Assembly: GCA_002269645.1 (NCBI GenBank)
Contig: NIVC01000819.1
Location: 1-64,000, forward strand
DNA: 64,000 bases
DNA from: Macrostomum lignano
Lineage: Eukaryota
Direction of reading: 5' to 3'
Part shown: piece by piece, positions 38,571 through 64,000 of the stretch
How the letters are laid out: the number at the start of each line of letters is the position of its first letter
Position numbering within the stretch: the stretch's first letter is position 1
Translations under genes and position numbers: made by a program
The notes under the pieces: generated by a model
Seen by the model: only the letters and a program-made list of their open reading frames with translations
Told to the model about the DNA's origin: nothing
The model's database searches: none

Positions 38571-39458
38571 GGCTGCTACCAAGGAGTGCAGATGGATACC
38601 AGCTGCCTTTGAAGTTACACAGTTAATGCGGAGATTCGCTATGAGTATACAATTTGAGTGCTCTCTTGGGCAGGTGAAAATCCGCGAAACTTTCAAGCAC
38701 AATTTAAGCAGCTTCTGGGCAGAAAATGGAAGTCGATTTTTCTAAGAATTGAAAACGATGTTAAGATCCTAATTAGGGCAAGCCACTTGTGTGAATCTAC
38801 GTTGTTCTCAGCTTCTCAGAATCGAGGTAGCAGCTCTTCTTGAAATAAATGTACTGCTTCAAATTTCCATCGTTCTGACGCATTTCAGTGCGTCACTGAC
38901 AGTCTGCACTTTCACTTTGATTACACTGCTCAATAGTAGCTTCATAACCGTATCTTACTACTTACTCAATAGTAGGCGATGATTTCTTAGGACTCAGCGG
39001 ATCGATGGATGTTTGACAGTTGATTGACTTCGGGCACAGTTAGACAGGTGTTTTACGAGCATGCCCATGATAGGAAACTGAAAACTCGCTAACTGGCTCT
39101 GCTTGGTTAAGTTTTGTCAAGACAGGTGGAAATCATATTACATTGCAGTATTAACATGTTTAACACCGAATTTAGTTGTTGGTTTTGCTTTGTCAATTCA
39201 GATTCTGCTTCACAATGGCGACAATCAATTTGGGGTGCCGCGAAAAAGTGTAAAAGAGCCACTTGGGGACAATTTTCAAAAGATAAGGAGACAAGGTAGA
39301 AAAATTGTTAACGTACGGTAGGGCAGTCTACGTTACTAATTAAAAACGCCTTTGCTAAAAAAAGCAACATTAAGTAATTGTTCTCTGCTTGTTTGCTCGA
39401 TTTCGCCATCCCAGAAGTTCTTCTCTCGAACTCATTTGCTTTTGTAGTTGCAAATTCG

Positions 39459-40230
39459 TCACGGCTTCACCCAGACCCACTGGGCCTCGCTGGCGATGTC
39501 GCTGGGCACAGCGGCGAATCTCATGAGGCGGCACATCCGGCTGGACTGCACGAAGGCGCAGGCGAGGCAGTCCGGGCTTCGGTGGCAGGCGGCCGCGCAC
39601 TCGATGACGCTTCCGGCCGTCTCGCTGCGGTAAACGATGGAGCTGGTGGAGGCTGCGATGCTCGGCATGGAAGCAACGGGAACTTTCGTTAGTTTCGGTC
39701 CAACTGTAAATTAGGAAGGAGTTTAAAAAGTTGTCTAAATCGTTAGGATAAAAACTGGTTTAACTTATTGAGAGAATCACAATTTTCTTGGCGCAGAACC
39801 CACTCGGTGGATACAGAGACTCATAGATGGAGTTCCTTGAGTCGCCGCCGCACTCCTGAGACGTGTTCCCTGTGCAAGGGTAGATGCAGTCGGCGGCAGC
39901 GGCGACGCCTTTCGAGCCGTAGGTCGAGCTGCAGCAGCAGAAAACGCGGCTCTGGGTACCGAAGTAGCGAAAGCGGCCGTAGGAGCAGATTTCTCTGCAC
40001 ATCTCCAGCGTCAGACTTTCTTCTCGGACAAAGACCGGGTTTCCTGAGTCATATGAGTAGGGTCCCAAAGTAGTGACCCCTTTCAGGCCAACCAGGTCCC
40101 GGTCCCCGTTGCCTCCGTCAACGTAGCAGCCAAGGTACTGATGGCCCAACGGCTGTGGCGGCAGCAGATGCCCTGAGCAACAATAGCCCTGCACCAGCAG
40201 CAGCAGGAGGGCCTGATCGGGGCGGAACAT
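39459..40230 (-). CDS. WSC + PAN/Apple-like protein, type D copy 1 (exons 40230-39804, 39703-39459; 223 aa)
   Basis: MFRPDQALLLLLV signal peptide and WSC motif; donor CCG A|gtggg, acceptor tttacag|TT, 100-bp intron in frame; TATA-like ATATAAAAA at 40316-40308. Confidence 0.9.
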
Positions 40231-41397
40231 TGGCTCAGCGACGGGTTGCGACGAATAACGGAGAGCTGAGTCCGAATCAGTCTGTTAATTTCAAGTTCTC
40301 CGCAGACTTTTTATATCGACCGGTGTCGCCCCCACCCCAATTGCTTTATTTGCCCGGCTCAGGGACTTCTTGATAGAGCATCTGAATTGGAAGCTCCCCA
40401 CCCCAAACATTTCATGGGGGAGCAAAACCGATAGCCAGTCAAATCAAGGCAATCGCCCAGTCTAGTAAGTCAGTTATGCTAGATGAAGCGATGGCTCAAA
40501 GCTCATAAAAATGTACTCGCTCTGAAGGGTCATCCCACATCATTGTCTAAGCCAACTTTGCCCGAAAAGGACCAAGGGATCCTTGCGGAAGAAACATTCT
40601 GTCTTATACAAGGTCTACAGGACGTCATGCAGGACGTGGACGCTCAATTGTGGTTTAATTGGACCCAGGGGTCCTAACAGTGTCTGAAGCTGTTTTCAAA
40701 TGCACATTTTGGCATGCAATGTAGCGGATATTATAAACCATTATTCTCAGTTGCTACGGAACTTGCCAAGTACGGAACTTCTGGTTGGGCTCAGCTGATT
40801 CAACGCAGATCAACCAACTGTGTGTGTGACACGTCTTCGAGCTTGCTGTATTTTCATACTCTCATGTTCCATTCGGAATTCCTGTTGGCTGACTGTAGGC
40901 TGCGCTGAAACGATGAATGTCAAATGCCAGAGAGCTGTGCCAGTGGATGCGCCGGAACTGTAAACCTGCTGTTTACTCAAATGAATCCACTGTGAGCTCA
41001 CACGTCAGCTGGGAGTCCAGACAGACACACGATACCTGACTCTGAACAAGCCAGCGTCAGGAATTTCCAAAGTCCGGAGTCAAAAAGCATTGTGAATTTC
41101 GACTGAGCTCGAATCCGGCCAGGCATTTAACTAAGGCAGTTAAATGGTGAGGAATGTCTGCTCAGCTGAGTAGCATATCCTAGTAGTTCTGCAGAATTCG
41201 CATCTAACAGGTTCAGTGTAGAATTTATTGTAGATAAAGGAATGATACACCATGTCAAAGGCTGGATAACATATGTTATAATGACAAAATCAAGTCATTA
41301 CCTGCAGTTATCTCCAATCTGCACTGGCAATGCATTCAGCTGGGCTTATGTGCTTCATCGGTTCCTCTTTCTGTAAAGCAGAGGTCGATGCTTTAGA

Positions 41398-50980: not shown

Positions 50981-52011
50981 TCACAGCTTCACCCAGACCC
51001 ACTCGGCCTCGCTGGCGACCTCGCTGGGCACAGCGGCGAATCTCATGAGGCGGCACATCCGGCTGGACTGCACGAAGGCGCAGGCGAGGCAGTCCGGGCT
51101 GCGGTGGCAGGCGGCGAGGCACTCGAAGGCCACCGTGGCCTCCTGGCTCCAGTAGGTGCTGTTCTCTGGCTGTCCGGGCGCGGTGGTGAGCATCGACTTG
51201 GTTGAGGCCACGCGCTTGAAGAGGCCGGTCTCTGAGCAGCAGCACAAATGCAGATAAATGTAGATTTATGTAGGCAATCCGGGCTGCGGTGGCAGGCGGC
51301 GAGGCACTCGAAGGCCACCGTGGCCTCCTGGCTCCAGTAGATGACGGAGCTGGCGGAGGCTGAGATGGTCGGCATGGCAGACGCGGCCACTCGCTCCAAT
51401 GCGGACCCGACTGCGGGTGAAGTTGAGTGAAAGCAGTTGCTGCGTGACTTTCCGCTGTCAGGCATTCTGGTGACCAATGCTAAGCTTATAATCTGAGTGC
51501 ATGGGAAGTACATCTTCATCGAACACAATAGCAAGTTAGATAGTACTTGTATTCAATCCGTTAAAGTTAAATAACTATTTGCAACCGTCGCATAGGAGAT
51601 TTCGTAGATGGAGTTGCGGCCCCAGCTACCGCAAATCTGACTCTCATTTCCTCTACAGGACGCGCTGCAGTCCGACGAAGCAGCAGCACCGTGGGAGCCA
51701 AAGGTGGTATCGCAGCAGCAGTAGTCCCTGGACTGAACGCAGAAGTAGCGAAACCGGCCGTAGGAGCAGATCTGGCTGCACAGCTCCAGGGTCATCGAGC
51801 TGTCAGTGTGCACGAATGCAGGGACAACATTGCTGATAGCAAACATTCCGAACGAGGTGAGTCCCAGAAGTCCGACCAAGTCTCGGGAACCGCCGCCGCC
51901 GTCCTCATAGCAGCCAACGTGGCTGAACCCCAGCGGCTGCGGAGGCACAGCGACCGTGCAGCCGCCGCCGCTGACGAGCAACAGCAGCAGCAAGAAAACA
52001 GCCGCATGCAT
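50981..52011 (-). CDS. Type C copy 2: WSC exon, then a truncated C-type exon 2 (51410-~51272), then a complete B-type exon 2 (51231-50981); chimeric
   Basis: The C-type exon 2 stops after SPDCL and runs into the B-type intron tail (TCTGCATTTGTGCTGCTGCTCAG). Splicing 51576 to 51231 would be in frame (228 aa). Confidence 0.68.
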
Positions 52012-53790: not shown

Positions 53791-54674
53791 GCTGCTACCA
53801 AGGAGTGCAGATGGATACCTGCTGCCTTTGATGTTACACCGCTAATGCGGAGAGTCGCTATGAGTATACAATTTGAGTGATCCCTTGGGCAGGTGAAAAT
53901 CCGCCAAACTTTCAAGCCCAATTGAAGCAGCATCTGGGCAAAAAATGGAAGTCGATTTTTCTAAGAATTGAAAGCGATGTTAAGATTCTAATTATGGCAA
54001 GCCACCTGTGTGAATCTACGTTGTTCTCAGCTTCTCAGAATCGAGGCAGGTCTTCTTGAAATAAATGTACTGCTTCAAATTTCCATCGTTCTGACGCATT
54101 TCAGTGCGTCACCGACAGTCTGCACTTTCACTTTGATTACACTGCTCAATAGTAGCTTCATAACCGTATCTTACTACTTACTCAATAGTAGGCGATGATT
54201 TCTTAGGACTCAGCGGATCGATGGATGTTTGACAGTTGATTGACTTCGGGCACAGTTAGACAGGTGTTTTACGAGCATGCTCATGATAGGAAACTGAAAA
54301 CTCGCTAATTGGCTCTGTTTGGTTAAGTTTTGTCAAGACAGGTGGAAATCATATTACATTGCAGTATTAACATGTTTAACACCGAATTTAGTTGTTGGTT
54401 TTGCTTTGTCAATTCAGATTCTGCTTCACAATGGCGACAATCAATTTGGGGTGCCGCGAAAAAGTGTAAAAGAGCCACTTGGGGACAATTTTCAAAAGAT
54501 AAGGAGACAAGGTAGAAAAATTGTTAACGTACGGTAGGGCAGTCTACGTTACTAATTAAAAACGCCTTTGCTAAAAAAAGCAACATTAAGTAATTGTTCT
54601 CTGCTTGTTTGCTCGATTTTGCCATCCCAGAAGTTCTTCTCTCGAACTCATTTGCTTTTGTAGTTGCAAATTCG

Positions 54675-55446
54675 TCACTTCTTAACCCAGACCCACTGGG
54701 CCTCGCTGGCGATGTCGCTGGGCACAGCGGCGAATCTCATGAGGCGGCACATCCGGCTGGACTGCATGAAGGCGCAGGCGAGGCAGTCCGGGCTTCGGTG
54801 GCAGGCGGCCGCGCACTCGATGACGCTTCCGGCCGTCTCGCTGCGGTAAACGATGGAGCTGTCGGAGGCTGCGATGCTCGGCATGGAAGCAACGGGAACT
54901 TTCGTTAGTTTCGGTTCAACTGTAAATTAGGAAGGAGTTCAAAAAGTTGTCTAAATCGTTAGGATAAAAACTGGTTTAACTTATTGAGAGGATCACAATG
55001 TTCTTGGCGCAGAACACACTCGGTGGATACAGAGACTCATAGATGGAGTTTCTTGAGTCGCCGCCGCACTCCTGAGACGTGTTCCCTTTGCAAGGGTAGA
55101 TGCAGTCGGCGGCAGCGGCGACGCCTTTCGAGCCGTAGGTCGAGCTGCAGCAGCAGAAAACGCGGCTCTGGGTACCGAAGTAGCGAAAGCGGCCGTAGGA
55201 GCAGATTTCTCTGCACATCTCCAGCGTCAGACTTTCTTCTCGGACAAAGACCGGGTTTCCTGAGTCATATGAGTAGGGTCCCAAAGTAGTGACCCCTTTC
55301 AGGCCAACCAGGTCCCGATCCCCGTTGCCTCCGTCAACGTAGCAGCCAAGGTACTGATGGCCCAGCGGCTGCGGAGGCAGCAGCAGCCCTGAGCAACAAT
55401 AGCCCTGCACCAGCAGCAGCAGGAGGGCCTGATCGGGGCGGAACAT
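54675..55446 (-). CDS. WSC + PAN/Apple-like protein, type D copy 2 (exons 55446-55020, 54919-54675; 223 aa)
   Basis: Near-identical to D1; donor CCG A|gtgtg, acceptor tttacag|TT, 100-bp intron. Confidence 0.9.
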
Positions 55447-55794
55447 TGGCTCAGCGACGGGTTGCAGCGAATAACGGAGGGCTGAGTCCGAATCAGTCTG
55501 GTAATTTCAAGTTCTCCGCAGACTTTTTATATCGACCGGTGTCGCCCCCACCCCAATTGGTTTATTTGCCCGGCTCAGGGACTTCTTGATAGAGCATCTG
55601 AATTGGAAGCTCCCACCCCAAACATTTCATGGGGGAGCAAAACCGATAGCGAGTCAAATCAAAGCAATCGCCCAGCCTAGTAAGTCAGCTATTCTAGATG
55701 AAGCGATGGCTCAAAGCTCATAAAAATGTACGCGCTCTGAAGGCTCACCCAAGTAGAAGGCATGAGGGGGCTTCTGGGACAAAATTTTTATTTT

Positions 55795-56010
55795 ATCCAT
55801 AATCCCATTAAATCCATTCATACTATCCCTGACAGAATCAGAAAAAAAAGGGGGGTCGCACTCGCTCACAAAACGTCCTCCATAATCCCATTAAATCCAT
55901 CCATATTATCCCCGACAGAATCATGAAAAAGTGGAGGGGTCGCACTTGCTCCGAAAACTTCGAACATAATCGTATTAAATCCATCCATATTATCCCTGAC
56001 AGAACCAGTG
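55795..56010. repeat. Three ~83-bp subterminal repeats in the presumed Polinton TIR
   Basis: CATAATCCCATTAAATCCAT.CATA.TATCCC.GACAGAA at ~55798, ~55881 and ~55964. Confidence 0.8.
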
Positions 56011-56138
56011 CATAACAGATGTCCACTAACACCTGTTATGTTCATTGACACAGACATAATCCACTGACATCCACCCATAGCATCTTCGAAACAATCAGAA
56101 AATAATCTGCATTCTTCTCCCCAAATTCAATCCGCAAC

Positions 56139-56456
56139 GTGCTACCACATCCCAAAGACTTTAAATCATCAGCGCAGGGTCCTTACCCTTTGAAAAAATC
56201 TAAATTTTCTCTAAAAATGTTTCCAGTTGTCTCTCCAGGTTCTTATTATACTCAGCCTCATCCATTGTACAAATCCAAGTACCGATGCAAACTAGAATGC
56301 AGCGAGTACATGAGAAAATATTGGCCCGGCGTTGATATCAATGTCCCTAATATTAATCAAGCTCTCCAAAGACACTGGTTTCATAAGTATGGAGTAACCT
56401 ACGTAAAAGATTATGACAGCTACTATAACTTTGCAGAAGTTATAAGGCAATTGTGA
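56139..56456 (+). CDS. Small Polinton hypothetical protein
   Basis: ORF between the terminal region and the penton; no recognised motif; true start uncertain. Confidence 0.35.
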   Translation: MLPHPKDFKSSAQGPYPLKKSKFSLKMFPVVSPGSYYTQPHPLYKSKYRCKLECSEYMRKYWPGVDINVPNINQALQRHWFHKYGVTYVKDYDSYYNFAEVIRQL

Positions 56457-56460
56457 TTTC

Positions 56461-57323
56461 TCACATTCTCTCAATGATTAACGTCAATACAAACTCTTCA
56501 CCGTTGAAATCAACACCCATCCCATCTTCAGTCTCAAACTGTAGCACAATCTCGTGAATCTCCTTATTACTCAATACAACTCTTTTCACTGGATTTGGTT
56601 TCTCTACCACCATCTGTCCTCCAGCAACAGAGTTGGAGATGTTGTACAAAATATTCGTTCGCTTTCCCTTAAATACCCAATCAAGACTGAGATTGCTTCT
56701 GATTAGAATATTCAAACCCTTTACAATGTCTGCAATATTGGGTGCTAAGAACAAACCGCTTACATTTTCCCGGGCCATTTTAACGGTCCCCGATGCTTGA
56801 GTGGCGGTCCGCGCCGCGGATTCTGCCTTATAAACTTTCTTCTCGAATCCCAGTTCCCTATACCAAGTGTCATCTTTAAACTCAACCTCCGCATCTTTGT
56901 GAACTTGCATGACCACTCTCATTACAGTGAGATCATAGGTAGTTTGACAGGGAACAGTTTCTTCTCTGGCTTACTCGCATCAGGTGTCTCAAAATGGCCT
57001 CTCTTAGTAAAGACATTTTCTAGAAAGTTATTGTAGGTATCCACACTTTGCGTGCTCACATGGAATACCACAGGGTCTGCTGCTGCACCTTTCCATTTGT
57101 AATAAAACTTATTATTTGCTGCCATCACATTGGGAACGTTTGACCAACCAGTGAAGTCGTTAAGATAGACATGGTAATTAGCACCTGGATCCAGGCGAAT
57201 CGCCTGCTCTAATTTTTGAATAAATATCCCGTTTGAGTCATTAATTCGCCCAGTTATTGTAATAGGAATGCTCTCCTTGGAGTGAGAAACAATATTATTT
57301 AGTCTTTCAGCAATCGCTTCCAT
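56461..57323 (-). CDS. Minor capsid protein (penton), one frameshift near 56945
   Basis: C-terminal NILY.I...GGQMVVEKP...IHEIVLQFETEDGMGVDFNGEEFVLTLII pattern typical of Polinton pentons; adding 1 nt at AAA gives VKTTYDLTVMRV. Confidence 0.8.
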
Positions 57324-57346
57324 TTTTTTTTCACATAAAAAAATAT

Positions 57347-58630
57347 TTAAACTTTACTGGATGAATTGTTGATCATGTTAAGCTTCACCTTCCTCTCAAA
57401 TGCATAGATAATGTACAGGTCCACGGGTGTTGCGAGTCCTCTCAATGTTAGTCACGATATTCACAGGGCTGTTATCAGTAGGCATTTGTCTGGCAGACAC
57501 ATCAGCGCCAAACATTGGATATAGAGTTCCATATTGAAGAGCAGTGATAGCAATTCCATTGTTCTCTTTCACAGCCAAGTCGACCAACTCGCTATAAAAT
57601 TTGCTAATCTTGTTCTGACTGAAATCTCCATTTTGTGGCAGTGCAGGGTAAAGATTATCACTGATTTCATGCTGAATGGACGCACGTCTCCATGCATGTA
57701 GCGTATAATGCTATTTGGGTTTCTCATATTAATAATGATATACCTTGGATTGCTGCATGATCCCTCTTTAATGCAGATGTTTGTTCTAGTTTCGTTTCGC
57801 TCATCTCGACACATGTAGGCCGTGTATGCAACATCAATGTCCTTCTCTATTGCCTTAAGATAATCCGCTTTTAGTGCAGTCTTTGGCTCAATGACTTCCA
57901 AATACAGCTCGATTCCGGTTAGCTTCACCTCCATCCTTGTGTGGTCCGCCCCAGTCCACAACACTCTACTGCGATCATCTCTAGTCAGTCTAAATGTGTA
58001 GCTAAAGTTACTAGTCAGTCGATTAAATGTATTACAGAATCCACTCATGAATCTCAATGGTACAAATACATCAACAGACCGATACAGCGGGTTCTTAGCA
58101 GCATCATCAGCACCTTGCAATGCATAGTTGTATCTCTTCTTCCTCTTTTTATAGCCACTGTCATTGATATCTCCTTCTTTTTCATCTGCAATAAAACCCG
58201 CACCACTTCCCAACTGAATAAAATCAGGATTCTCGATCAAACAATGAGCGTCATAGACAATTCCAAAGTTGGCGATTCGCTCCAACTCAGTGCTCCCATT
58301 CGATACACTAAACTCCTTGAACATGTACGCCCAAAAGTTACTGATCAGAGCCACATCCGCATCATGCTTGTCAACGTTAGCACGAGCCGCATCCGCACCA
58401 CCCTTTGTCTTGAATTGAAATGTCATATGGAAGCCGCTCTTAAGACTGTGCACACTAACCAAAGACGAACATCCATTGTATGTAAATGTCAGTGTTTGGC
58501 CAGGACCAAGATTAGTTTCATTCTGATTTTCCTGACTGGGAACTCTTACCTGAGTCGCTTTGATTGTGCTATCATCACTCAAAATAGGCTTGTTAATTTT
58601 GTAGAAAACTGGTGTCAGTGGGTCGTTCAT
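57347..58630 (-). CDS. Major capsid protein (double jelly-roll), frameshifts near 57680 and 57440
   Basis: NFWAYMFKE, VFVPLRFMSGFC, LTGIELYL; repaired tail DNLYP..YPMFGADVS..DLYIIYAFERKVKL resembles Polinton/adintovirus MCP; adjacent to the penton. Confidence 0.82.
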
Positions 58631-58660
58631 TTTTTAACTAAAAATAAAATAAAATAAGAA

Positions 58661-59888
58661 ATGAAGCGAAAAAGTACACAGCAGATATCTGAATTGGAGA
58701 AGCTAGCACAAGCAGAGAAACGAGTTACCGGGCTAATAAATAAGGAGCAACAATCCTACAATGAGTTTGTCCAAGCAGCCACAGAGTTTCATAAACCCGG
58801 GTATGGAGAAGCTAAGAAAAATATTGATCAGGTCAAAGAAACTATCGACGACATACAGGAAACCCAGGTGCAAAAGGCTTTGGGCAAAATTCCAGAAGCA
58901 CCACAGATACAGCCGCAACCACAGACACAACCGCAACCACAACAATCACAACAACAATCACAACCACAACAGCAACTAAAAGTGACAGATAACATTTTTG
59001 GACCAGTAGAGCGTGTAGAACATGATGGGAAATATGTATTTGGAATAAGTATGTGGAGAAGAAACATTTATAATGAACCAGTGGAATATTATATCGACAT
59101 AAATAAGGAAAATATTTCTGTTGTCAAAGGCTCAGAAACTATGAAAATTCCTTTCACAGACACCTTACTGACTTTTATGACCAAGAACCAAGAGAAATCT
59201 CGAGAAGCAGCTAAAGAACTACAGAAATCTAGTGACTTTTTCTCTTGTTAGAGATATAGAAATACTAAAGGTCCCAGAAGTTCTGAAACACATGTACGAT
59301 AGCGGTGTCAACCTGACTAAATTCAAAAAGTACAAGCACTTTAAACAATGGTTCGATTTGCCAGATCAGGCGGAAGTCATAAAATATCTAGAACAACAAC
59401 AGCAACAACAACCACAACCACAGCAGCAGCAACATTTCACAGAAGTACTCAGGCAACTGGAAAATGCAGATCCGACTCAAGTAGCTAAATATAAAAATGA
59501 TCACCCAGATGCCTGGCAACACTTAGAACAACACTCTCCAGATCGAATGAACAGAATCAAGCAAAGAGTTTTCACACCTCAACAAAGACAGGCACCACAT
59601 GACAGTTCCATCTCTGAAAGTGAGCAGTCTTTTGCATCACCTCCCCAGCAGCTACAAGCCCAACCAACTCCACAACCCCAAGACCAACCGCCCTCAACTG
59701 GAAAAGGAATTTCTGAAATCTACAAGCGAGTAGCGGTTCTTCTAGGAGCAGCAAAGACCGGAATGAAAGATGAAAATAGAAAAGAATTTGTCAACATCCT
59801 GGACAAAATGATGGAAAAAAGTATATCGACAAAGGGCGAGAGAGCTTCTGCTTTCGCGGTTCAACAAAAAATAATTTATTTCAAGTAA
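58661..59888 (+). CDS. Gln-rich Polinton protein, probably one ORF split at a T-run near 59240
   Basis: Two consecutive ORFs with Q/P tracts; C-terminal GKG..EIYKRVAVLLGAAKTG..EFVNILDKM motif recalled from Maverick ORFs. Confidence 0.55.
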
Positions 59889-59890
59889 AA

Positions 59891-60278
59891 ATGCCGATTA
59901 TTTTTGAAAAGACGTGACAAATACTATGACAAAGAGGAACTTAATCTCATTAAACGCGGATCTGGACTTTTCCCTGCAGGCCACTATCCAAGAAAAGAAC
60001 GCTCTGGGAACGGTCTTGCCGATTTGATCGCTCAGGGGGCCAAGATTTTTAAGGTCATTGGAGAGAACAAAGAGAACATCAAGAACGTTGCCGAAGCGGC
60101 TGGCAGTGTAGCCACAGCAGCCAAAAAGATAAAGGATACTGTAACACCTAAACAAGAGATTCAGCCTCCACTGGCCCCGCTGGCTCCATTGGCCCCAAAT
60201 ACAGACAGTGTGGACCCTGCAGTCTATGAGAAGATGAGGGCTAGCATTAAAAAAGGAAGTGGTTTCAAATTTGACTAA
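59891..60278 (+). CDS. Small basic Polinton protein with repeated GxG motifs, candidate protease-processed core or membrane-lytic protein
   Basis: KRGSG, RSGNG, KKGSG; amphipathic LADLIAQGAKIFKVIG segment; the ATG at 59891 joins the 59904 frame if one T is removed from a T-run. Confidence 0.5.
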
Positions 60279-60319
60279 AGGGTACTTTCCGAGGGTACAA
60301 GACATGTAAGAGTATAAGA

Positions 60320-60410
60320 CTAGTCCCAAAATGACACATCTAAGTCCCAAAATGACACAGCCAAGTCCCAAAATGACACATCTAAGTCCCGAAATGACAC
60401 ATCTAAATTA
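60320..60410. repeat. 21-bp tandem repeat (GTCCCAAAATGACACATCTAA), 4 copies, intergenic within the Polinton
   Basis: Read directly. Confidence 0.9.
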
Positions 60411-60445
60411 TTTATTATTTAAATTTTTTTTTCATCATAGAAAAA

Positions 60446-61246
60446 ATGGACTTTTCAAACGACTTCAATCCTCACTGGACGCGTAATCAGATTAAGTTTT
60501 CTCATCACGAGTCAATTCCGAGTCACTTCAGATGCATTGTTGTTGGTTCATCAGGTTCAGGTAAAACATTCAGAGTCTTTAACATGCTTCTTAGACCTGG
60601 CTTTATCGACTATGACACTCTGCACATCTACTCTCCCACACTGTATCAAGATGAGTATAAAATGTTGATTTCTGGATTGCAAAACAAACTGCACAAAGAG
60701 GACATTATTGCATGTTTTAATAACCAAATGAGCCTTCCCAGTAACCCTGAAATTGTAGCTGCTGAATATGCAAAGCACCTCAAAGACAATGAAAAATGGC
60801 AGAACATTAAAGTGTTCACCTATGGAGATCCACAGGCTGATCCAAAGACCAAACTTCTACCCCAACCAGATGAGCTAGAAAAGGGGAGAAAGCATTTGAT
60901 CGTCTTTGATGATTGTATGACAGGCCCACAGAAGCAGATAGAAAACTATTTTACAAGAGGGCGACATAACAATTGCAATGTAATTTACATTGCACAGAAT
61001 TGGTTCGAGCTCCCGAACAAAACAATTCGTGGGAACTGCAATCTGATTCTCCTGTTTCCAACCATTCCACAGGACAGGCTAAAAAGATTTTACAATGAGG
61101 TCATTGCGCCTGCCTATTTCATAAATCCAACAAAAAACTCAAGCAGAAAGATTTCACAAGAGGAATTCGTTAATCTTTGCTATGACAAGTGGAATCAGCC
61201 TTACCAGTTTGTGATTATCAGCAAAGAAAAAAGAACTGTAATTTAA
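60446..61246 (+). CDS. A32/FtsK-like DNA packaging ATPase
   Basis: Walker A GSSGSGKT, Walker B LIVFDD, then FTRGRHNNCNVIYIAQ..IRGN, diagnostic of Polinton/poxvirus A32-like ATPases; uninterrupted. Confidence 0.95.
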   Translation: MDFSNDFNPHWTRNQIKFSHHESIPSHFRCIVVGSSGSGKTFRVFNMLLRPGFIDYDTLHIYSPTLYQDEYKMLISGLQNKLHKEDIIACFNNQMSLPSNPEIVAAEYAKHLKDNEKWQNIKVFTYGDPQADPKTKLLPQPDELEKGRKHLIVFDDCMTGPQKQIENYFTRGRHNNCNVIYIAQNWFELPNKTIRGNCNLILLFPTIPQDRLKRFYNEVIAPAYFINPTKNSSRKISQEEFVNLCYDKWNQPYQFVIISKEKRTVI

Positions 61247-61262
61247 AATTTGCTATTAAAAG

Positions 61263-61994
61263 ATGTCGATAAACTTTGCAGGTGAATCCATTTCTGGCAA
61301 CAGCGCTCTTACATCAGCTCAGATATCCATCCTTGACAGGCGATATATCAACAGCGACGAAAAGATCCCAGAGATCAAACTGAATAAAAACAGACTGAAA
61401 GCCCTAGAGCGCTCCATGCACCAGTTGCAAATAAACATGGAAGATCTCAGGCTTAAAGTAGCTAGGCAGAAGTTTGAAAGTGATAAGCTTTATGCGCCGT
61501 TGTTAAACGCAACTAATGAACTAAGGTCAGAAATAACTTCGATAGTCTCGCTAATCAACGGCTTGAGATCATCAGTTAATCTTCTGGGAAATTCCACTGA
61601 TAGACGGATGCGTATTCTCGAAGGAGGAGTTTTCACAAACACAGCTAAAGTAAATAATTTAGAAGAGTTCATGAACCAGTCAACAGCATTGCATGATAGA
61701 ATTAAAGAAAACGTCGCAACCAACACATGTAAAGTGAGGAATTTAGAAGAGTTCATGACTCAGTCAACAGCGTTGCATGATCAAATCAAAGTAAGAATTA
61801 CTGCAATTAAAGTCTTTGTAGATTTAGTTTTTACCGAATGGCAGAAATCGGTGAGAAGAATCGGTCATCTTGAACGCTTGCATAATCTCGAAAACATTGA
61901 CGCTGAAGAGGCACCACAGACCACAAGGGAAACAAGTGATCCAACCGACTTGTTTGAGATCATGCGTAGAATGGAGCTCACAGATAATGAATAG
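61263..61994 (+). CDS. Coiled-coil Polinton protein with an internal duplication
   Basis: Heptad-rich 243-aa ORF; KV.NLEEFM.QSTALHD.IK occurs twice. Confidence 0.65.
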   Translation: MSINFAGESISGNSALTSAQISILDRRYINSDEKIPEIKLNKNRLKALERSMHQLQINMEDLRLKVARQKFESDKLYAPLLNATNELRSEITSIVSLINGLRSSVNLLGNSTDRRMRILEGGVFTNTAKVNNLEEFMNQSTALHDRIKENVATNTCKVRNLEEFMTQSTALHDQIKVRITAIKVFVDLVFTEWQKSVRRIGHLERLHNLENIDAEEAPQTTRETSDPTDLFEIMRRMELTDNE

Positions 61995-62104
61995 GCAGAT
62001 TCAGAGACCTGTTGCCGTGACTGCAGACAAAGCAACCAAACGTAAAACAAATCTAACCACCACCAACTAGTTGCCGATTTTTTTTTTTAAAAATTCCTTA
62101 AAAA

Positions 62105-62640
62105 ATGGATGCTCAAAATTCTCTTTATGATCCGAACGCTCCCACAGCACCTAGTGTACCTAGTGCACCCCAATATGAGCAACAAAAACTCTACCCCGTC
62201 ATTACTTGTAACTCTCAGCAGTTTCGACTGGTGGAGATTCAAAAAATGCGTGATGATCTTGAAAAAAATATTTTCCACAACACAAAGAAAATTAAGCGCT
62301 ATGACAACCACTGTAAATTTTTCGACTACAGCAATATGATTCTAGGATCTGTGTCTGTTCTAACTGGGTCTGCTGCAGCTGTCTCAGTGTTGCCAGCCAT
62401 CACAGCCCAATCGCAATCCCTCGGCTCTGTGGGTGCTGCATGTGGACTTATTTCAGCAATTACTGGAGCATTAGCGCGAAACAGGCGAAAAAAACTAAAG
62501 CAGCTACAGGAGAAGCAAGTAAAAGAGAAAGGGTGCACACTTCAATCATAGGGTACATTTCAAGGGCAATCGAGATAAGTTCATTTCAGAGGATGAGTTC
62601 AAAACCATTCAGGATCTTTATGAACAATCAATTCGAATGA
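62105..62640 (+). CDS. Conserved Polinton membrane-associated protein (LYP/FRL motif, hydrophobic hairpin), frameshifted C-terminus
   Basis: KLYPV..QFRLVEIQK..KKIKRY, two hydrophobic segments, a basic cluster, then SIIGYISRAI and KFISEDEFKTI in other frames; pattern recalled from Maverick ORFs. Confidence 0.6.
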
Positions 62641-62782
62641 ACTTGAACATGGTCGGTACTGATGACATGAGTCAGCTGAAAAATGAACTCGAGAAAGTTT
62701 TTCAACATTATGTGGAAAGAAAGTCGGCGAAAAATTCGGCAAGAAATTCGGCAAGAAGGACGACGAGAATGCACAATGAACC

Positions 62783-63183
62783 CTATGAAACACAGCCAAG
62801 AATAATTTCCTTGTAGGTCTTTCGTGTTTTGGTCATTGCATACAAAACAGTCATGCACAGCTCACCGCAAATATCACTGCTAAGACCTTGGAGAATAAAG
62901 TCTGAGCGATAAATTTTTTTATTATTTTTCCCTTCATATAATTTCTTAGCTCTTCTGGTACTGCCGTCCCATAGCTATCGAAGTAATAACACTTGTGCTT
63001 GCGATCGGGATCAATCACCCAGCAAACCCAATGAGATCCTGGCTTATCGGTGGTGTCAAAGTTCATGATGCCGCATTCTTTTCTTAGAGGAAAATCAGGC
63101 AGAGTGTCCCTCATAAATATTCCTCTAAAGTTTGGGATTTCCAGTTCGTTAGCCAAATCTTCGAGAAAGTTATTTGTCGTCAT
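62783..63183 (-). CDS. Adenain-like cysteine maturation protease, frameshift at an A-run near 62915
   Basis: GIMNFD..PGSHWVC (His), YYFDSYG (Asp), and in the next frame LQGLSSDICGELC (Gln, Cys). Confidence 0.92.
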
Positions 63184-63257
63184 TTTTATGAGTTTTATTA
63201 AACTTTCTCTTAAACCTAAACCTAATCTCCTAATCTCCTAAACCCAACCTCCACCTC

Positions 63258-64000
63258 CTAAACCCAACCTCCTAAACCTAATCTCCAGTGCCCGAACGGT
63301 AGACTGTTAATATTGTCATCAAAAATGAATCTCTTGTTATCTGCACCTGACAGTCCAATCTTCTTTTGCTGAATTGTGTGAATAATATGGTTTTTAGATT
63401 GTAGCTTTGAGAACTCATGTGATGTCTTTTTGTTGCAATTCAAGGCGTCTCTGTATTCAGCTTCATTAATTTCCTTCCTAACCACACGTTTCGGAATTCC
63501 CTTTGATTTTTTAATTGGGTCTGACGACTCACATTTTACAAAATAGGACTTTGCTCTCAACCCAATGAATTCAGTGATTATGTCACCAGCAATCTCGTCC
63601 TTCATTTTCCCAATCACTTTCTTGTTAGTGCGTCAAACACTTGATCGCCATTCTGTGTCCTGAAAGATTCATCATACTCAGACAAGTCAAACAAATCTTT
63701 TTGCTGCAGCATGTCCTGATAAATGTCTTCTGTTTGAATGTCCATAATAAAACTGTCTGTGTCAGTGTACAAGAGTTTCATTTTATCCTTGTACTGCTGC
63801 TTCATGCCATAGAAGAACTGGTACATCAGACGTTTTGATTCGTCGAGAACAGTGACACCTGTATAGATCGGCTTGCGCAGCGTCACCTTGGTTTTGTAAA
63901 ATATGATCACACCTAAGTAGCTATTAAAGATATGGAGTTCTTTGAATGTTGGCTTTGACATATTTGCCTGAATAACAGCAGGCTCTGATGAGGTAACAAG
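63258..64000 (-). CDS. polB: Protein-primed family B DNA polymerase, C-terminal part; frameshift near 63620; continues past the window
   Basis: KLLYTDTDSF (motif C), DLSEY, GKMKDE, EFIGLRAKSY, KGIPK, DNKRF. Confidence 0.95.

Follow-up and report, generated by a model that had tools for sequence, protein, structure and literature searches.

Structure and core genes of the element

The window considered here is a stretch of 64,000 nucleotides from Macrostomum lignano (C819:1-64000, where C819 denotes contig NIVC01000819.1 of the 764 Mb assembly GCA_002269645.1), and its right end runs into an integrated element of the Polinton/Maverick type. The element extends over C819:55752-71890, 16,139 bp as set by both located ends, and is flanked by the host word CACCCA, a 6-bp target site duplication found at 55746..55751 on the left and, beyond the window, at C819:71891-71896 on the right. 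The left end lies exactly at 55752, where AGTAG directly follows CACCCA and G+C content drops from about 50% to about 40%. Here begins a terminal inverted repeat (TIR; 55752..56454, forward strand) with three to four subrepeats of 83–90 bp, whose inverted copy at C819:71187-71890, beyond the window, is 98.0% alike over 704 columns and ends in CTACT, then CACCCA. Where the TIRs differ, the mismatches cluster at two places, a short stretch close to the tip and the innermost 130 bp, separated by roughly 530 bp that are identical.

A host paralogue of both flanks, at 39085..41281 of the window (forward strand), lacks the element. It is 97.5% identical to the left flank and 94.6–95.9% to the right, and is unbroken across the site (empty site at about 40531-40537). 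This uninterrupted host duplicate marks the insertion as real and likely of recent date. The surrounding host DNA includes a tandem family of small WSC-domain genes (51553-52011, 54976-55446 and 39085-41281, with PF01822 on 54976-55446). The element was inserted about 300 bp upstream of one such gene, within one of two units that are 97.5% alike.

Every Polinton feature looked for was found: TIRs, target duplication, pPolB, rve integrase, major capsid protein (MCP), penton, packaging ATPase and protease. A preliminary description of the window had recognized a Polinton/adintovirus with a full virion morphogenesis module, listing penton, MCP, ATPase, adenain-like protease and pPolB plus five accessory open reading frames (ORFs) in three transcription blocks, and Pfam matches, predicted folds and ORFs agree with it on each of these points. 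The blocks consist of penton and MCP on the reverse strand, four accessory ORFs and the ATPase on the forward strand, and the protease with the end of pPolB on the reverse strand; the fifth accessory ORF lies within the TIR. Because the C819 copy is broken, penton, MCP, protease and pPolB were identified from frames that are naturally open in sister copies.

The identity of the penton, or minor capsid protein (56461..57323, reverse strand), is confirmed by its predicted fold: the model of a 287-amino-acid sister frame (12 sequences; pLDDT, the predicted score of the local distance difference test, 74) has as its best Foldseek matches the mavirus penton (E = 1.5e-9) and then adenovirus penton bases. 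By the fold of a low-confidence model, 57347..58630 (reverse strand) encodes a double jelly-roll MCP. Its PF21738 match stays under the cut-off, and every fold match listed is a capsid chain from double jelly-roll viruses, including PBCV-1, mavirus, iridovirus and Sputnik MCPs, with E down to 7.9e-10. The A32-like packaging ATPase (60446..61246, forward strand) is open in the C819 copy, has Walker A and B motifs, and matches PF04665 (Pox_A32) at 27.4 bits against a cut-off of 22.8. For the adenain-like maturation protease (62783..63183, reverse strand), a sister open frame passes PF00770 (peptidase C5; 22.3 versus 21.3), with His, Asp and Cys motifs present. The C-terminal part of pPolB fills 63258..64000 on the reverse strand, its gene starting at about C819:67127, beyond the window; the sister frame passes PF03175 (58.9 bits) and has Exo and Pol motifs, and its EndoVII domain match is below cut-off.

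The preliminary description noted that the window holds no integrase, correctly, as the gene lies further along the contig. Extending the contig, as that description proposed, recovers both the integrase and the right TIR, with the right part of the element present and in order, so that the element is complete. The rve integrase (C819:67728-68765, reverse strand) is an open frame of 347 amino acids matching PF00665 at 34.4 against a cut-off of 32.6. It is preceded by an ORF with a pX domain (C819:67253-67711, reverse strand; PF05829, 30 versus 25) and followed by a parvovirus-type PLA2 (C819:68797-69267, forward strand; PF08398, 53.6 versus 23.9, E = 2.7e-14) and by two ORFs without assigned function (C819:69862-70792, reverse strand). 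What lies between PLA2 and the right TIR (C819:69300-71180) is variable cargo that differs among copies, as seen at loci L026, L027 and L029.

Four of the five core genes in the window, all but the ATPase, carry frame breaks in the C819 copy, as do three accessory ORFs; these breaks were missing from the earlier list. There is one near 56.9 kb in the penton, two in the MCP (near 57.4 and 57.7 kb) and one in the protease, and six frameshifts were counted in pPolB. Taken as assembled, this defective copy would depend on sister copies acting in trans. The suggestion that the element is mobilizable therefore finds no support for the C819 copy by itself and holds at most for the family.

Copy number and selection in the family

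Near-identical members of the element's family occupy at least 150 places in the assembly. In protein searches, the best 115–150 candidates were scored per gene from 396–1,665 first-look candidates, making the per-gene counts lower bounds, which also include duplicated loci; scored matches across genes are 82–100% identical. For the MCP there are at least 115 scored matches, of which 113 have 97–99% identity, and by hand count 103 of 114 other matches keep a stop-free frame of at least 429 amino acids. At least 117 matches were scored for the integrase (90–100% identity) and at least 150 each for penton, protease and PLA2. Both ends could be located in 10 of 14 copies sampled by TIR similarity; six of these ten have an exact 6-bp target duplication and one has five of six letters.

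Pairwise ratios of nonsynonymous to synonymous substitution (dN/dS, for pairs with dS above 3%) are 0.11–0.12 for the MCP, 0.20–0.21 for the penton, 0.16–0.18 for pPolB and 0.13–0.14 for the integrase, with a filter for well-aligned codons that lowers dN a little. Without a codon filter, MCP variants shared by at least two loci fall 14, 7 and 52 times at codon positions 1, 2 and 3. Because of the low dN/dS and the codon-position bias, we conclude that the capsid genes were under constraint while the family spread.

Proposed life cycle and alternative explanations

It is very probable, in our judgment, that the locus holds a full-length integrated Polinton from a young, high-copy family that, up to a recent time, likely followed the standard cycle of spread, its capsid genes functional. 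Direct support comes from the TIRs, the target duplication, the empty paralogous site, the full gene set, the many close copies and selection on the capsid genes; as the latter were kept by selection, the family likely made particles until recently. The standard model is drawn from known Polinton biology (PMC10748475, PMC8097293 and PMC11071308). Under it, one copy would be released as linear DNA, whose AGTAG ends would be the starting points for protein-primed copying by pPolB, with the OTU-like protease domain of this polymerase predicted to cut off the terminal protein. The ATPase would package DNA into a shell of MCP and penton that the protease matures, PLA2 and pX would serve as entry and core proteins, and the product would be a non-enveloped icosahedral particle, while the integrase would insert new copies with a 6-bp duplication.

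Several observations weigh against this picture. Selection on capsid genes shows function, not exit of particles from the cell, and the dN/dS pairs are non-independent, including mirror-image arms (see below) and duplicated loci. The family's ratios of about 0.1–0.2 also greatly exceed the value of 0.001 given for Mavericks of fish (PMC8097293). The MCP model has a pLDDT of only 53. Counts of open frames favor unbroken copies, since just the best-scoring candidates were counted, and even so a stop-free pPolB frame of at least 1,250 amino acids occurs in only 3 of 116 other scored matches. Among the sampled copies, pPolB is unbroken in none of the nine in which it is covered, none of the 14 is unbroken over eight genes (2–20 breaks each), and three of the ten with both ends have flanks without a match.

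How far these points favor other explanations differs. The family might be only an intracellular self-synthesizing transposon that forms no infectious particle, its capsid proteins being retained either because they act in the nucleus or from cell to cell, or as a legacy of a recent viral ancestor. This is possible, though we find it doubtful. The evidence consists of genes, copies and selection rather than of particles, free DNA or expression, and a large number of copies show rearrangement, nesting or deletion; particle formation by animal Polintons is itself an open question, Maverick particles never having been observed according to PMC8097293. Against a purely intracellular life stand the constraint on the MCP, which within this young family equals that on pPolB and integrase, the retention of penton, ATPase, protease, PLA2 and pX alike, and the presence of close MCP relatives (70–77%) in other public assemblies. 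As to expression, two runs presumed to be RNA cover 29 of 30 bins, including the TIR, as does a small presumed-DNA run, so transcripts are indistinguishable from the DNA of a high-copy repeat.

The other alternative, which we regard as unlikely, is that the family is recently dead, having gone through a burst of amplification and now carrying real inactivating mutations in all copies. The lack of any unbroken copy in the sample of 14 agrees with this, and private changes over 11 pieces comprise 36 indel places and 214 substitutions, an indel minority equally compatible with real mutation and with error. Yet frameshifts outnumber stops by 78 to 8 in the 14 copies, and private indels over the 11 pieces are 29 missing letters against 7 extra. 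An excess of frameshifts and missing letters is typical of errors in long-read consensus, to which the pattern seen here appears to point. In addition, contigs of four public runs, which mostly represent sister copies, differ from the C819 copy at most of its in-window break places, and each core gene is open in some sister copy. Private substitutions in the C819 copy number 30 in 13,925 compared positions (0.2%). A standard Polinton cycle remains our preferred account. The host, carrying at least 150 close copies of a family whose capsid genes are constrained and whose insertions are recent, is a practical one in which to seek free DNA and particles.

Accessory genes and variation among copies

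An ORF of 79 amino acids (56217..56456, forward strand) is found twice per element, since it lies inside the TIR. It is free of stops in 145 of 150 scored matches and has a third-position bias and a dN/dS of 0.20–0.36 (dS above 3%). No credible homologue was found in the protein search, in which the only three matches were weak and all to repeat-rich proteins, and were rejected.

The four forward-strand accessory genes begin with a Gln-rich gene that is in two pieces in the C819 copy (58661..59888) and has no Pfam match at cut-off. The next, a small ORF broken near its start (59891..60278), likewise has no Pfam match; by eye, an amphipathic-looking stretch follows a Gly-rich motif, making it a candidate for a virion protein cleaved by the protease. 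Downstream of the ATPase are an ORF that looks coiled-coil-like by eye and whose C-terminus varies among copies (61263..61994), and one with two hydrophobic segments and several breaks at 62.4–62.8 kb (62105..62816).

Ahead of the ATPase, 21-bp tandem repeats (60317..60400, forward strand) are a recurrent point of rearrangement in sister copies. On contig C1098, element ends fall within these repeats, a possible hot spot of self-targeting; copies nested in or abutting other copies are seen there and on C957 and C2506. A second family copy lies on the C819 contig itself, in opposite orientation (C819:90375-96617). TIR length is about 874 bp in C3721 and C1076, where the repeat includes the terminal part of the penton gene, and 701–704 bp in others. 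Some left-arm stretches are only 69–87% alike between copies, making the family mosaic. Of 37 inverted repeats found in positions 55000-64000 of the window, the 25 longest include no nested inverted tip. There was no Rfam match, to a group I intron or otherwise, in positions 54000-64000 of the window or in 16 family loci, and the word GGNCC shows no clear loss (15 seen versus 12.4 expected, and 7 versus 13.2, standard deviation 3.7).

Copies with mirror-image arms

The single unusual feature of the family is a set of copies in which one arm is present twice in mirror image. Stretches of 11 contigs, picked for inverted gene pairs or odd spacing, were set beside four ordinary copies. Six contigs (C1652, C276, C1584, C633, C2140 and C975) have mirror-arm elements with both ends seen and exact duplications. 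A seventh, C3945, is cut by the contig end and repeats an insertion already counted, and the other four (C1098, C33, C2506 and C957) hold nested, abutting or deleted copies. The set amounts to five insertions. Four have two left arms (C1652:28604-39932, the same insertion being on C276 and C3945; C1584:127375-135893; C633:134497-147606; and C2140:107247-122715), with arms of 1.75–6.2 kb that are 98–100% alike and contain capsid genes but lack the integrase, with pPolB present as a fragment at most. The fifth (C975:122373-133902) has two right arms of about 5.5 kb and an exact duplication, with integrase and PLA2 twice and no capsid genes.

These copies are probably real. As to their origin, we lean towards assembly artifacts, through a turn-round in the TIRs or chimeric long reads, or towards repair within the chromosome, an explanation that concerns the mirror-arm copies alone. 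C975 shows about 40 differing columns between the outermost 350 bp of its two ends and 2 in the 5 kb of inner arm, as in-place conversion or misjoining would predict. Both arms of C2140 hold a host retrotransposon between penton and MCP (L021:1925-6320), of the tyrosine-recombinase type, with a reverse transcriptase domain that passes its cut-off and a Y-integrase match that does not; we take it to be DIRS/Ngaro-like. Its junction occurs at no other locus among the best 40 of 391 candidates. The middle segment is also flipped between contigs of one insertion. For the two-right-arm junction of C975, no bridging contig piece was seen among the pieces listed (800 more exist), and the same mirror-arm junction was not seen at two unrelated sites.

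Artifact or repair has to contend, on the other hand, with five separate insertions that each have an exact 6-bp target duplication and unmirrored flanks. The best match of each arm among the fetched loci is its partner, at 99.8–100%, against about 98–99% for other copies; one junction recurs in three contigs; and the middles, of 0.5–5 kb, are asymmetric, with the C633 junction linking two gene starts. That the mirror-arm copies formed during free replication is nevertheless improbable. We likewise assign a low probability to the view that the family is still cycling and that these copies are integrated fold-back defective genomes, arising by template switching or panhandle extension on free linear DNA. 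Fold-back defective genomes and TIR extension are familiar in linear strand-displacement replicons, from adenovirus panhandle repair and linear plasmids; such genomes likewise have one arm twice in mirror image, both ends intact and the other arm lost. Unlike these replicating genomes, the mirror arms described here have been seen only in integrated form, in an assembly. Were they true fold-backs, they would preserve a fossil trace of a proposed step of Polinton replication, and they would matter only if confirmed by long reads and inserted after forming. Among the titles listed, none was on mirror-arm Polinton derivatives, and panhandle literature was reached only through entries in the reference list of PMC9863843.

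Relationship to adintoviruses and other Polintons

Relatives of pPolB number 4,935 among 7,993 scored candidates, the 120 listed being 40–47% identical, and the named ones among the matches listed come from corals, molluscs, one crinoid and snakes. The only adintovirus-named match listed is the PolB of a Corynactis coral adintovirus (40% identity over 97% of the searched part), which supplementary figure S2 of PMC8502044 shows on its Alpha panel. MCP and penton relatives occur at 38–77% in other public assemblies, under uninformative names. The element also has the PLA2-like gene (PF08398) that is a hallmark of the Alpha virion module (PMC8502044). Given the Corynactis match and this hallmark, the element is likely an Alpha-type adintovirus, an assignment by PolB match and gene content. 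With the Mayetiola-class virion module of Alpha adintoviruses, as presented in PMC8502044, it shares a pfam03175 PolB with a putative OTU-like Cys/His pair (read by eye in our pPolB), adenain, rve integrase, FtsK-type ATPase, hexon, penton and PLA2. It may depart from them in that the pX-like domain, placed at the C-terminus of the Alpha PLA2 protein in PMC8502044, is found here on a separate ORF across the integrase and not on PLA2, as judged by Pfam, a less sensitive method than the profiles of that paper. Gasdermin, a Beta adintovirus gene, had no Pfam match in any ORF scanned, although weak homology could escape such a scan.

The preliminary description supposed that such an element may be undescribed in this host lineage. 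This is doubtful, as Polintons of flatworms have been catalogued before: of 73 Platyhelminthes genomes in the supplementary table of PMC10748475, 8 contain 748 pPolB1-integrase loci between them. The C819 element is a typical Polinton that adds little new. Among literature titles, none was on Polintons or Mavericks in the presumed host genus, with repeat databases and subscription journals, where the family may be named, outside the scope of that search; host terms are absent from the accessible supplement text of PMC8502044.

In animal Polintons and Mavericks (PMC10748475, PMC8097293), total length is 13–25 kb, TIRs are 100–1,500 bp and the target duplication is 5–8 bp, ranges within which the C819 element falls on all three counts, and the core genes are the same. 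Its 16,139 bp are close to the vertebrate Polinton mean of 16.9 kb, selection on capsid genes is common to both, and the family's copy number of at least 150 is similar to the top counts quoted for vertebrates, 172–287. In contrast, its gene order is unlike the two-module layout of vertebrate Polintons, and the conserved 79-amino-acid ORF in the TIR and the mirror-arm derivatives set the family apart from the animal Polintons known from these sources.

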